A program made the translations under genes and the position numbers. Positions 56,136-60,003 of a stretch of DNA of 64,000 nt are shown one piece after another. The notes below the pieces were generated by a model. It was not told where the DNA came from. It searched no databases and worked only from the letters and a program-made list of their open reading frames with translations. Origin of the DNA: an uncultured archaeon (GTDB lineage Archaea; Thermoproteota; Bathyarchaeia; Bathyarchaeales; Bathycorpusculaceae); assembly GCA_963782915.1 (NCBI GenBank), contig CAWALK010000024.1, forward strand, positions 1-64,000, given 5' to 3'. The first letter of the stretch is position 1, and every line of letters begins with the position of its first letter.

Positions 56136-56236
56136 ATGGTGGTATGCTGAGGCCCTGGAGAACGGAGAATTGCAACCTTTGATCACGAACATGTACTAAT
56201 CTGAAAGTGCAAACCAGAGCCTTCTCAGCCCACCAT
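56136..56236 (-). ncRNA. free-standing RNA closed by a canonical bulge-helix-bulge motif (predicted circular RNA precursor)
   Basis: AUGGUGG-GCUG-[AGA]-AGGCUCUGG...CCAGGGCCU-CAGC-[AUA]-CCACCAU. Confidence 0.7.
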
Positions 56237-56292
56237 TTTATCTTTCGATATTAACAAAAAAGGGAAAGGGATTGTTGTTTGATTTTGCGTGT

Positions 56293-58897
56293 TTACTTTT
56301 TGCGTTGCATCAGCATGTTTAACACGCCGACGATGATGATGACGACGATTATTGCTGCGACTCCTGGTAGGAAGTATTGGTCAGCGACGCTTGCTGGTGC
56401 TGCTGTTGGTGCTGCGGTTGCTTGTGGTGCTGCTGCGACTGTGAATGATGATACTGCCTCAGATGGCCAGTATGATTCACTGCCGCCGTATGAAGCGTAT
56501 ACGATATAGTCACCTGTGATGTCTGGGCTCCATGTGTAGGTGAAGTATCCTTCTGTTGTGCTTGTGGTTTGTCCGATGGTTCGGTAGTTGCCGTTTGCGT
56601 CAACAACGCTCAATGTCACTGGGACACCAGATGCGTTTGTTGGCTTTGGTTGTTGCATGTACACGTATGCCATCCATTCGGTTTGGCTTGCATCAGAGAC
56701 GCATCCAACTCCGTTGGGGAAACGTGCTGATCTGTCAGAGTCTGTTGTGCCTGCGGAAATGTCTGTGATAGTGCCGCTGAGGACTAAGGATTTGCCTGAG
56801 TCGACGCTTGTTTGTGGTGCACTAAGGGTGGTTTGTGTTGGGCCTTTGCCGTAGGTGTAGATTTGGCAGTCGTAGCTGTTCCATGCGACTAGGTATCCGT
56901 CTGCGATTGCGCTTGGTTCTCGACCGTAGTAGCCGAGTCCGCTCCAGACTAATTGGCCGTTGGTGCAGTTTATGGCTAGTTTGTGTGCATCAGAGAAGAT
57001 TGGTGGGTCATACATGCGACCTTCTGAGAGGAACAGTTTGCCATCAGCTATGCTATGTGACCCGAAGTGCCATATTGGATAGACACCGTATGGTGTGTTG
57101 TATCCTGCTTCTCGGGGCATATAGGTCCAGTTGAGGGTTCCACTTGCTAAGTTGATTGCATTTACGTATCCACCGAAGTCCCAAATGTATGCTAAACCAT
57201 ATGCAATGGCTCCGCCTCTTGAGAGGGTGCTCAATGCGCTGCCGACTAATTGTACTCCTGAGCCGACTTGTGCACCTGTGTTTATGTTGTAGACGTATGC
57301 TGTGTTGGTGTCTTTGTCTTGTTCAACGTAGTAACCGTCGCCTGCACAGAGGACGCTGACTTCATGGTAGATTGGGGTTGTTCTGTTAACTGGGCCCCAT
57401 ATTACTGCGCCTGTTCGTGCGTTCATGCCGACTTCGATTTCTGATGAGTTCACCGAATTCGGATGCGAAGGTTGCCATAGTTTGACCGTAAGATCTCAGA
57501 ACTATTACGTTGTTGGTTCTTGCTGCAATGTTTAGTTGTGGGTTTTTGAGTGTAGCTGTTACGCTGCTTAGGTCAGTAATGTTGACTCCGTTGATGGTTG
57601 CTGGAATCGGTTTTGACCATTGGTAACCACGAGTGTAGTTGATGTTGCCTGATGGGCGGATTGTTGAGCCACCTGATGGACCTGCTAAGCAGAGAGTTGA
57701 ATTCCACATTGTCAAAGTGAGGTTTGGATATGTGCCGTTTATTGTGTGAATATAGACTGCGCCTTGTGTGCTTTCATCGTCTGTTTCAACTAAGCCTGAG
57801 GCTACTGTGTTAGGAACGCTTGTGATGTTGGCAATGAAGTATCCAGTCATTGGGTCATAGAGATGCCATACGTTATAGGCAGTTGCGCCTGTGCCGACGC
57901 TTGGACCGATTGCAACTAGGAACGCTTGTGTTCCGTATTCCTGTATAGTGTGGAATTGCATGTTCCAACCGTAGACTAATGTATCGTTGGTTTCTTTTGT
58001 CCAGAGTGTTTGTCCTGTGCGTAAATCAACTGCTGCCCAACCTGGGGTTCCGCCTGGACTTGTGACTGTTGTTGGTACGTTGGGGTATAGTTTGTAGTAG
58101 ATAATGCCGTTCATGATGATGGGTTCGAATTGTCTGTACAGAATTGAGGTTGAGGTGTACTGGCTTTCTTGGTCGCCGCTGATTGGACCGCCAACTTGTC
58201 CACCGAAGGCTGTTGGCTTAACCCACATAATGTGAGCTGAGTTTGGCGCTTCAGTGTATGGGTTGAAGTTGTTACCAGTTGCGTCGTAGCCGCCGGTGTC
58301 AGTGAAAGACGGTTTGCCAAGACCCCACCAGTTACCGCCAAGCTGTGACCAGAGATAGTTGGTTGCATAGATTGGACGCGACCAGTATTCTGTAGGAAGC
58401 GGAACTAATGGTTTACCTTGGATTTGGTCTTGTTGTACTGCAAAGGTGATTGCTTCGCTCTGGGTTGGAAGGATATTGTATGTGAGTGTTACGCCTGAAC
58501 TTGTGCCGCTGATTGTTTGTCCTTTGTAAAATGCTTGTACCGTGTAGTTGCCGGTTGTGTCGGGGGTGAATTCGATTCCGCCGACTCCGCCGGTTGTGTC
58601 GCTGACGTATGGTCCGAGGGTTGTGTTTGTTCCGTCTGGTTTAACGATGTTGAGGGATAATCCTGTGTATGTGCTGGCTCCGCCGGATGAGCCGACGATT
58701 GGGATTGGTTTAGTGAAGAATAGGCTGATGTAGACGACTTGTCCTACGCCCGTTGGGTTTGGTTCAGCGTAGACTTTCAGGTATACTGGCATGTCTGACG
58801 CTGCTGCCGCGGGTGCGATTTGCGATATTTGTATCATCGTGGGGATTGTTAATACGACTAAAAGAATCATCGCTATCAAAGTTTTTGTCTTTTGCAT
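56293..58897 (-). CDS. secreted PQQ-like beta-propeller surface protein, paralog 3 (1 frameshift near 57445)
   Basis: PNP.GVGQ, LPTEYWSRPI, AVDLRTGQTLW, RFPNGV..VSD.SQ..WM.YVYMQ, C-terminal TM + RKK. Confidence 0.87.
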
Positions 58898-59053
58898 TTT
58901 TTTCTTTCTCCTCATAATTAGGAAGCGAAAATGCTTCCTTCCTCTTTTTCATCTGGTTCTGCTAATAAAACCGCGCAGCAACACTGCGTTGTGACAACCC
59001 TTAAATTCTCCAGACCCCATCAGGGTGCAACTATTTATAAGGAGATAAGTGGA

Positions 59054-59866: not shown

Positions 59867-59914
59867 ACAAGAAACGCCCAGAAAGTTAATTAATCCATAA
59901 ACCCCCAAAAAGTT

Positions 59915-59979
59915 GGCTATGGCATTAGCCGTGGCAGTCGCCAGAACCGCAACCAAAACTGGATGCTGATAATGCCTAC
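59915..59979 (+). promoter_or_regulatory. fluoride (crcB-motif) riboswitch
   Basis: P1 GGCTA/TAGCC around TGGCAT; AACCGC..GCTGATAATGCCTAC with GGCAT/ATGCC pseudoknot; directly upstream of crcB. Confidence 0.9.
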
Positions 59980-60003
59980 CAATTAGAATGGATGGTAGAT
60001 GGT

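Follow-up and report, generated by a model that had tools for sequence, protein, structure and literature searches.

The window analysed here, the first 64,000 nucleotides (nt) of contig CAWALK010000024.1 from an uncultured archaeon of the Bathyarchaeia, carries on its minus strand a short element closed by a motif of the bulge-helix-bulge (BHB) type. We tentatively read this element as one copy of a clade-restricted, multi-copy family of Bathyarchaeia small RNAs, whose members would act in trans as antisense RNAs on the initiation regions of surface-protein genes and would be circularised by the splicing endonuclease EndA and the ligase RtcB. Comparison of the copies establishes, at the level of sequence, a conserved and structured RNA-level element on the strand of the gene that precedes it, an invariant arrangement of 3-nt bulge, 4-bp helix and 3-nt bulge (hereafter 3-4-3), linkage to a single protein family, and antisense complementarity that holds for the family as a whole.

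An earlier note on the window had proposed a free-standing, undescribed circular small RNA. Our literature search found no description of this RNA (the supplementary tables of PMC12918454 and PMC7714728 lay outside the search), and to that extent "undescribed" stands. The lone element does not: what the note took to be free-standing belongs, as a rather diverged copy, to a family with many members that is linked to surface-gene 3′ ends. A conserved interior module that is antisense to the ribosome-binding site (RBS) and start region of those genes had been overlooked.

Structure, conservation and distribution of the RNA family

On the minus strand, the window copy reads as the note had described it: a 7-bp outer helix, a 4-bp central helix, a 9-bp inner helix and two opposed 3-nt bulges. 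When the segment from 56236 to 56136 was folded with RNAfold, the minimum free energy was −36.9 kcal/mol, compared with a mean of −25.2 kcal/mol for shuffled sequences (z = −3.83; none of 200 shuffles was as good); the opposite strand folded more weakly (−33.9 kcal/mol). The interior rod with its one-sided loop, UUCUCCGUUCU, which had also been described, was recovered by RNAfold as well. These shuffles and, mainly, the more than 100 homologues of the hairpin rule out a chance fold.

Does the motif belong to a known RNA? As the note had held, no tRNA, rRNA or Rfam host was found for it. ARAGORN located no tRNA gene in the 64-kb window, and a tRNA, a tRNA intron or a split tRNA was rejected on this ground. 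Rfam gave no match over the element at the gathering threshold, and only chance-level matches (E 2.5–8.7, 6–17 bits) when E values up to 10 were admitted; a known RNA family is thus rejected. None of those matches was to the tRNA clan (no dedicated permuted-tRNA scan was made) or to a guide-RNA family, and neither C/D nor ACA boxes were seen in the family consensus, as judged by eye.

The family came into view through BLAST-type scans of the host genome, to which the window belongs, and of 40 relatives; these showed many loci with the stem's 5′ half. Regular-expression scans recovered full units, in which the ends are conserved (GGGCUGA-NN-AGG ... CCUCAGCAAACC(C)) and the middle varies. A covariance model, R1, built from 19 copies, gave 19 hits in the host genome, 16 of them strong; the strong hits correspond to about 13 distinct loci, because contig C5 duplicates part of contig C22. 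In Bathyarchaeia loci, R1 gave 106 hits, representing 104 distinct copies at 92 loci, and the 70.8 bits scored by the window copy lie in the middle of the family's range. A pattern scan of 185,579 species genomes returned at least 115 stretches. Among the 80 pattern matches listed, 72 bear the title Bathyarchaeota or Bathyarchaeia, one Thermoproteota and seven other names; they include two loci of Ca. Bathyarchaeum tardum (CP122380.1).

Within a kinship-coded sample of the class, the RNA was present in 17 of 151 genomes, and in a phylum-level draw in 3 of 151, none of these outside family f1; both counts are lower bounds, since 24 candidates per genome were scored under strict filters. By family, the class sample gave 11 of 20 genomes in f1, 4 of 6 in f7 (4 of 4 in genus g16) and a single weak hit among 33 in f24.

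Two side observations concern the host genome's copies. The 32-kb contig C5 is a near-exact repeat of part of C22, with three RNA copies that score identically and one 880-aa protein that is 98.75% identical; this is either assembly redundancy or a recent large duplication. Two weak R1 matches, at C20:383530-383642 (−) and C20:389898-389998 (−), with E values of 0.007 and 0.003, lie 2–8 kb from the 16S rRNA gene; they may be diverged members of the family or processing stems of the rRNA.

The closing stem is strikingly constant. Both bulges are 3 nt long in all 104 distinct copies, with no insertion or deletion in the bulge or central columns; the geometry that the note had drawn from one sequence is thus kept in relatives. 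The consensus of the 5′ bulge is A, G/A, A/U, and that of the 3′ bulge is AAA. Over the same copies, the central helix is 99.8% paired and essentially invariant, and the inner helix is 94% paired and covaries, with changes on both sides at seven of its nine pairs. The outer helix begins with two invariant G-C pairs and a covarying third pair (GC 52, AU 14, UA 5, GU 6), beyond which about half of the cells are paired. In 500 shuffles the covariation score never came up to the observed value, and controls with slid partners were 32–54% paired versus 84.8% observed. The inner helix holds 55 G-U pairs versus 23 A-C pairs; this excess, together with the orientation of the genes described below, assigns the RNA to the same strand as the upstream gene.

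Contiguous outer helices, scored in 101 copies, are 2 bp long in 23, 3 bp in 31, at least 4 bp in 47 and at least 7 bp in 15. Their mean of 4.1 bp exceeds the 3.05 bp obtained when flanks were swapped between copies. The longer outer helices differ by lineage: AUGGUGG/CCACCAU in the window copy, AACUGGG/CCCAGUU in other copies of the host genome, and AAGAAAUGGG/CCCAUUUCUU in loci related to Ca. Bathyarchaeum tardum. Downstream, there is no conserved 3′ trailer; a run of at least five U residues occurs within 90 nt in 51 of the 101 copies.

Several other identities were considered for the element and rejected. A small open reading frame (ORF) from the AUG often found ahead of GGG does not hold, as the frames differ between copies (AUGGGC-UGA vs AUGGGG-CUG) and the interior carries insertions and deletions. 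Nor does the start of a gene on the opposite strand: ORFs from the complementary AUG have a median length of 12 aa, with 3 of 56 at 50 aa or more. The GAA that follows GCUGA suggested an archaeal selenocysteine insertion sequence, but the two positions vary (G/A, A/U) and the upstream ORFs are full-length without read-through. By eye, neither bulge is followed by the tandem G-A of a K-turn, and the hammerhead-like CUGANGA does not fit.

Linkage to a surface-protein gene family

The nearest upstream ORF lies on the same strand as the RNA in 84 of 95 copies (84:11), whereas downstream the nearest ORF shares its strand in 45 copies and opposes it in 44. The genes flanking the window copy are those the note had named, a surface-protein gene upstream and a PfkB kinase gene downstream (PF00294, E 3.5e-34). 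Because the downstream orientation is random across the family, the pfkB gene is incidental; a role for the element as a 5′ regulator of the downstream gene falls with it.

In 73 of the 96 copies with enough flank to measure the distance, a same-strand ORF ends 21–97 nt ahead of the invariant GG, with a median of 65 and an interquartile range of 61–69. All but three of these 73 ORFs (70) end in a hydrophobic stretch followed by basic residues, typically ...YFVPAIAGLFVLIIIV...LRKRP and the stop. They encode membrane-anchored proteins of about 850–930 aa with weak matches to PQQ/BamB-like beta-propeller and immunoglobulin (Ig)-like domains; beyond these weak matches, Pfam and NCBIfam yielded no named family. 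The host genome holds 48 BLAST-related ORFs or fragments of this protein family, many of them frameshifted; the fragmented paralogues are either pseudogenes or errors of the assembly consensus.

The association extends across genomes. The surface protein was found in 22 of the 151 class genomes, and all 17 RNA-positive genomes are among them; the RNA is thus present in 17 of 22 protein-positive and 0 of 129 protein-negative genomes. This co-occurrence spans seven genera in three families, in which related genomes are not independent. The remaining 23 of the 96 copies stand alone, with no family gene before them (e.g., C20:75603 and C5:21781).

The spacer between stop codon and element in gene-linked copies consists of an A-rich stretch and then CUUUCCCC-UUUUUU-AG, often followed by a purine-rich leader, AAUGGAGAAGAGAUAA. 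Its C/U block lies at a fairly fixed 25–33 nt from GGG and is missing from the stand-alone copies. In the window copy the block reads CCCUUUCCCUUUUUUG, which is probably the oligo-U terminator of the surface gene and/or part of the small RNA's promoter. The tRNA promoters of the host genome (GAAA-nc-TTAAATA) differ from this C4-U6 block.

The leader deserves mention in its own right. It lies about 5–20 nt before GGG in many copies (for example at loci L056, L068, L083, L028 and L094), resembles a ribosome-binding region and complements the UCUUUUCUCC motif of the same RNA (a 10-bp complement, counted by hand); the copies of the host genome lack it. It could be a built-in decoy or pseudo start region. 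It was also seen that gene and RNA units often stand in tandem, two or three on one strand and 3–4 kb apart, as at loci L030, L054, L055, L061, L067, L079, L091 and L094 and at G000:C24:136944-140540. Such runs resemble an array of paralogue cassettes.

One might ask whether the element acts as DNA, that is, as a miniature inverted-repeat transposable element (MITE) or as an integron attC-like recombination site marking gene cassettes. The bulged hairpin, with conserved ends that resemble inverted repeats and a middle of variable length, would suit such an element, as would its position just 3′ of ORFs and the occasional tandem units. Yet the 84:11 orientation and the fixed spacing are unlike transposon insertion, and linkage to one protein family is unlike a collection of diverse cassettes. 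The compensatory changes, with G-U in excess over A-C, and an interior that is conserved and antisense to the start region of the gene family also speak against it. Three weak tyrosine-recombinase matches occur in the host genome, the nearest about 81 kb from a weak copy and none adjoining any copy, and no GTTRRRY box was seen by eye at the ends. We consider a DNA-level element very improbable.

Antisense complementarity to surface-gene start regions

What, then, does the conserved interior contain? Its consensus is a hairpin with the loop UUUGCAUUU followed by single-stranded UCUUUUCUCCUU (the tail also being written UCUUUUCUCCUUAA). The stem of the loop hairpin averages 5.0 bp, compared with 3.7 bp in a control with swapped arms, and the loop motif UU[G/U]CA[U/A] occurs in 65 of 101 copies. 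The surface genes, for their part, start with AAAGGAGAAAAAGAAA-AUG, often followed by CAA-A. The interior module is the exact reverse complement of the surface-gene initiation region AAGGAGAAAAGAAAA-AUG-CAAA, such that the loop lies opposite the start codon and codon 2, and the tail opposite the spacer and the Shine-Dalgarno sequence.

Duplex predictions agree with this correspondence. For a consensus-like copy in the host genome (C24:140413-140540), six of the ten best predicted targets among 3226 ORFs are genes of the family. The best duplex, of about 25 bp and −33.9 kcal/mol, pairs it with a family gene that lacks an RNA copy, C12:199035. With reversed sequences, none of six tests placed a family gene in the top 30. 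Across 80 loci of other genomes, the start regions of family genes had a median duplex energy of −14.8 kcal/mol versus −11.7 kcal/mol for non-family genes (63 vs 247 ORFs; Mann-Whitney p 1e-7), a difference that vanished in the reversed control (p 0.8). Start codons were chosen by rule, and the effect sizes are moderate outside the best examples.

Mean energies were also calculated for 31 pairs of an RNA and its own gene. The real RNAs reached −16.9 kcal/mol against all start regions, compared with −11.0 kcal/mol for reversed RNAs and −10.7 kcal/mol for shuffled targets. Divided by target, the means were −17.0 kcal/mol for the own gene's start region and −16.9 kcal/mol for those of other genes. 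There is a small effect of shared assembly: −18.4 kcal/mol within the same assembly, the own gene set aside, versus −16.8 kcal/mol between different assemblies. RNA and gene also shift together: at locus L090 (Ca. Bathyarchaeum tardum) and the related L070, GAGGAAUGAAC-AUG-AAAA pairs with UUUUCAU...UCAUUCCUUC, and a GGUGA-type start region likewise pairs with UCACC. Predicted complementarity to the start regions of the surface family thus extends beyond what composition gives at the level of the family, and does not do so for the window copy.

In addition, copies from the host genus (e.g., L140:1501-1623 and L151:1937-2064) present a UUUGCAA loop in the first interior hairpin as well (ACGAUG-UUUGCAAU-CAUCGU). 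Two loops of each of these RNAs are thus complementary to (A/U)UGCAAA, and UUG is the start codon of several family genes there.

Could the element instead be a cis-acting structure in the 3′ untranslated region (UTR) of the surface mRNA, pairing with that mRNA's own 5′ initiation region, so that the mRNA is closed into a loop or its translation silenced, and/or protecting its 3′ end? Its fixed position past the stop codon on the same strand, the strict co-occurrence of RNA and gene, and strong own-gene duplexes at loci such as L028 (−27.8 kcal/mol) and L054 (−26.0 kcal/mol) are what such a structure would show. Against it, the conserved C-rich block and its U6–7 tract separate the stop codon from the element; a C-rich block with a U tract is the usual kind of archaeal termination signal. 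Moreover, the own gene is not preferred over other genes of the family, the stand-alone copies have no such mRNA before them, and the best duplex in the host genome is with a gene on another contig. Together, these points make a cis-acting role quite unlikely in our estimation.

The features of the window copy and its surroundings are collected below. Its interior is degenerate (UUGCAAUUCUCC...CUCC), its 3′ bulge, AUA, is unusual, and its outer helix is long. The surface gene before it (56293-58915) is split between two frames, by a frameshift, through pseudogene formation or through an assembly or consensus error. The copy is diverged and may belong to a decaying unit, unless the split gene is an assembly error. 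Elsewhere in the window, Rfam gave a single hit at the gathering threshold, a fluoride riboswitch (crcB motif, RF01734) at 59906-59985 (+) that scored 39.4 bits where 34 are required.

Features of the window copy and of the surface-protein gene that precedes it
Feature	Coordinates	Strand	Remarks
Whole element: small RNA closed by hBHBh′ structure, family member	56136..56236	−	70.8 bits with R1
Outer helix, 5′ strand AUGGUGG	56230..56236	−	family-wide, only the last two G invariant
Outer helix, 3′ strand CCACCAU	56136..56142	−	
Central 4-bp helix, 5′ strand GCUG	56226..56229	−	invariant family-wide
Central 4-bp helix, 3′ strand CAGC	56146..56149	−	invariant family-wide
5′ 3-nt bulge AGA	56223..56225	−	family: A, G/A, A/U; fixed length
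3′ 3-nt bulge AUA	56143..56145	−	family: AAA in ~100/104; fixed length
Inner helix (9 bp), 5′ strand AGGCUCUGG	56214..56222	−	7/9 pairs with double changes across the family
Inner helix, 3′ strand CCAGGGCCU	56150..56158	−	one U-G pair in the helix
Interior: degenerate anti-start/anti-Shine-Dalgarno module	56159..56213	−	UUGCAA 56175-56170, UUCUCC 56169-56164, CUCC 56160-57
C/U-rich block CCCUUUCCCUUUUUUG, between stop codon and element	56255..56270	−	kept in gene-linked copies, missing from stand-alone copies
Surface-protein gene, 3′ part, 386 aa, PQQ-like/Ig-like, C-terminal membrane anchor ...YFLPGVAAIIVVIIIVGVLNMLMQRKK-stop	56293..57453	−	stop codon 62 nt before the invariant G-G
Surface-protein gene, 5′ part, 509 aa, other frame, overlaps 3′ part	57386..58915	−	

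Proposed processing and regulation, and relation to known systems

The host genome encodes the enzymes that circularisation would require: two ORFs with EndA domains (PF01974; 189 and 184 aa; in the regions C3:14491-14736 and C3:35259-35510) and one RtcB (PF01139). The two EndA paralogues suggest an (alpha-beta)2 enzyme of the two-subunit type, to which PMC6379350 ascribes a broad substrate range. A 2026 paper reports circular rRNA in Bathyarchaeia, which it describes as encoding EndA and RtcB (PMC12918454). The long processing stem that flanks the host's own 16S rRNA (C20:380444-381932) holds two 3-nt bulges, AAA on one strand and CAA on the other, set apart by a 4-bp helix (CUCC/GGAG). The BHB of the family thus has the same 3-4-3 topology as that of the 16S rRNA, with a different sequence. 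ARAGORN found only 24 tRNA genes, four with introns (that of tRNA-Trp being 78 nt long), in this 93.5%-complete genome; the low count may fit the presence of many non-canonical introns that the program missed.

The proposed course of events is as follows. The RNA would be transcribed from its own promoter or by read-through of the U-tract of the surface gene. EndA would then cut both bulges and RtcB would join the ends, giving a circular RNA of 80–110 nt. For the window copy, the predicted circle runs from 56223 down to 56144 (80 nt), if the canonical EndA cleavage positions, on which the estimate is based, hold. Its junction would be ...CAGCAU joined to AAGGCUCUGG...; for the family it would be ...CCUCAGCAA joined to AAGGCUC..., and the exon joint would be GGGCUGAG joined to ACCC. 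Circular or not, the RNA would pair in trans with the region from the Shine-Dalgarno sequence to the start codon of surface-family mRNAs. Pairing would block initiation, and translation of the whole paralogue family would thereby be coupled to its level of transcription.

A number of observations weigh against this reading, several of them concerning the step of excision. We infer the transcription of the element, its ends, its cleavage and its circularity alike. The U-tract between gene and RNA makes their co-transcription uncertain. For the window copy, the minimum-free-energy structure adopts an alternative that is isoenergetic with the canonical register, in which the central helix has 5 bp (GCUGA/UCAGC), the bulge reads GAA and the inner helix is 8 bp long; A56225 and A56222 compete for U56150, so the canonical 4-bp register is possible and not uniquely favoured by folding. 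The 5-bp register fits equally well. The outer helix is only 2–3 bp long in 54 of 101 copies. Being invariant in sequence, the central helix and the A residues of the bulges give no covariation support, and EndA, which recognises shape, leaves such conservation unexplained; another reader of the closing motif is possible.

Several of these features form the case for the main rival, a linear small RNA of the same family and with the same antisense role, in which the bulged stem would serve as a terminal helix that stabilises the RNA or would bind a dedicated protein, with neither an EndA cut nor a circle. Recognition of shape by EndA has no need of the invariance seen in the central helix, the bulge A residues and the flanking G-G/C-C. 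An outer helix of 2–3 bp is what one expects of a transcript that starts at the invariant GGG, and a TATA-like UUAAAAA lies about 19–26 nt before GGG in many copies; the alternative 5-bp register would serve a linear RNA as well. On the other hand, all 104 copies keep exact 3-nt bulges and a helix capable of 4 bp, matching the BHB of the host 16S rRNA. Several lineages also extend the outer helix with differing sequences, which implies that those copies need sequence upstream of GGG in the transcript. On balance, we regard a linear RNA as somewhat unlikely.

The remaining adverse observations concern the antisense role. The loop motif is missing from 36 of the 101 copies, and 5 of the 22 protein-positive genomes gave no RNA hit; the latter may be misses, given that only 24 candidates per genome were scored. 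Even for the best host copy, four of the top ten targets are non-family genes. Three further host copies each place two to four family genes in the top 30, and two, including that of the window, place none there. The RNAs show no preference for their own upstream gene (2064 of 5000 permutations were as low), and purine-rich Shine-Dalgarno regions are common in the host genome.

Circularised antisense RNAs in trans, which we continue to prefer, would permit a further step that we consider unlikely. Were a circular antisense RNA to lie behind each paralogue, each could mask the RBS and start of the other paralogues; this cross-repression network would set the number or the identity of the surface proteins that are translated, and excision would remove the leader decoy. 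Many copies have a leader that imitates the target and can thereby complement the antisense motif; in these, the RNA would at the same time be activated by its excision. If such a network exists, it would mean that RNA controls how the cell surface varies in a lineage of archaea that has not been cultivated.

The preferred reading, if true, would mean that archaea use the splicing endonuclease to make stable circular regulators. The Bathyarchaeia, which are abundant and have hardly any cultivated members, would gain a first RNA regulator with a defined set of targets, a surface-protein family that has grown to about 30 ORFs or fragments in the host genome, and experimenters a clean system of short RNA, short target and recombinant enzyme. 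Even without the circle, a gene-linked family of RNAs directed against start regions is a new and well-supported comparative finding that is fit for Rfam.

How does the family compare with other RNAs bounded by a BHB motif? Outside tRNA and rRNA, PMC7714728 gives only the cbf5 pre-mRNA and the Haloferax HVO_1309 5′-UTR intron as known cases, and the permuted signal recognition particle (SRP) RNA of Thermoproteus is a further BHB substrate according to PMC4731332. All three resemble the present family in that a 3-nt/4-bp/3-nt motif closes a segment that is neither tRNA nor rRNA, with EndA and RtcB both encoded and an excised piece that is predicted to be circular. They are, however, single loci at which the joined exons are the product. 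The present family consists of repeated genes (13–16 copies in the host genome) whose "exons" comprise just a few nucleotides that code for nothing; the functional part would be the piece cut out by the predicted cleavage.

Another parallel is the intron of tRNA-Trp, a C/D box guide RNA that circularises, mentioned in PMC12558985. There, as is predicted for the present family, the BHB bounds an RNA that works as a small RNA in its own right and accumulates in circular form. Unlike that intron, the present element has no tRNA host and no Rfam C/D match, and its predicted action is pairing with the start regions of mRNAs rather than guidance of methylation.

In its proposed mode of action, the family recalls the trans-acting small RNAs that mask ribosome-binding sites by C/U-rich motifs, which include Methanosarcina small RNAs and many bacterial ones, some derived from 3′ UTRs. 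The likeness lies in a single-stranded C/U-rich anti-Shine-Dalgarno sequence and a seed presented in a loop, with complementarity from the Shine-Dalgarno sequence to the start codon. The differences are that the present family is multi-copy and closed by a BHB, that one RNA gene lies behind each target paralogue, and that it is known from sequence alone. Integron attC sites and repetitive extragenic palindromes, too, are bulged, imperfect hairpins with conserved ends that lie just 3′ of ORFs; in contrast to these, the present element has a conserved interior that is antisense to the gene family beside it, it is linked to one protein family only, and no recombinase lies nearby.

Since each ingredient has precedent, the family is not categorically new, whether as a BHB-bounded RNA or as a small RNA directed against ribosome-binding sites. 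It differs from its precedents in that a whole gene family carries the BHB motif, and in that the excised piece, and not the joined exons, would be the product.

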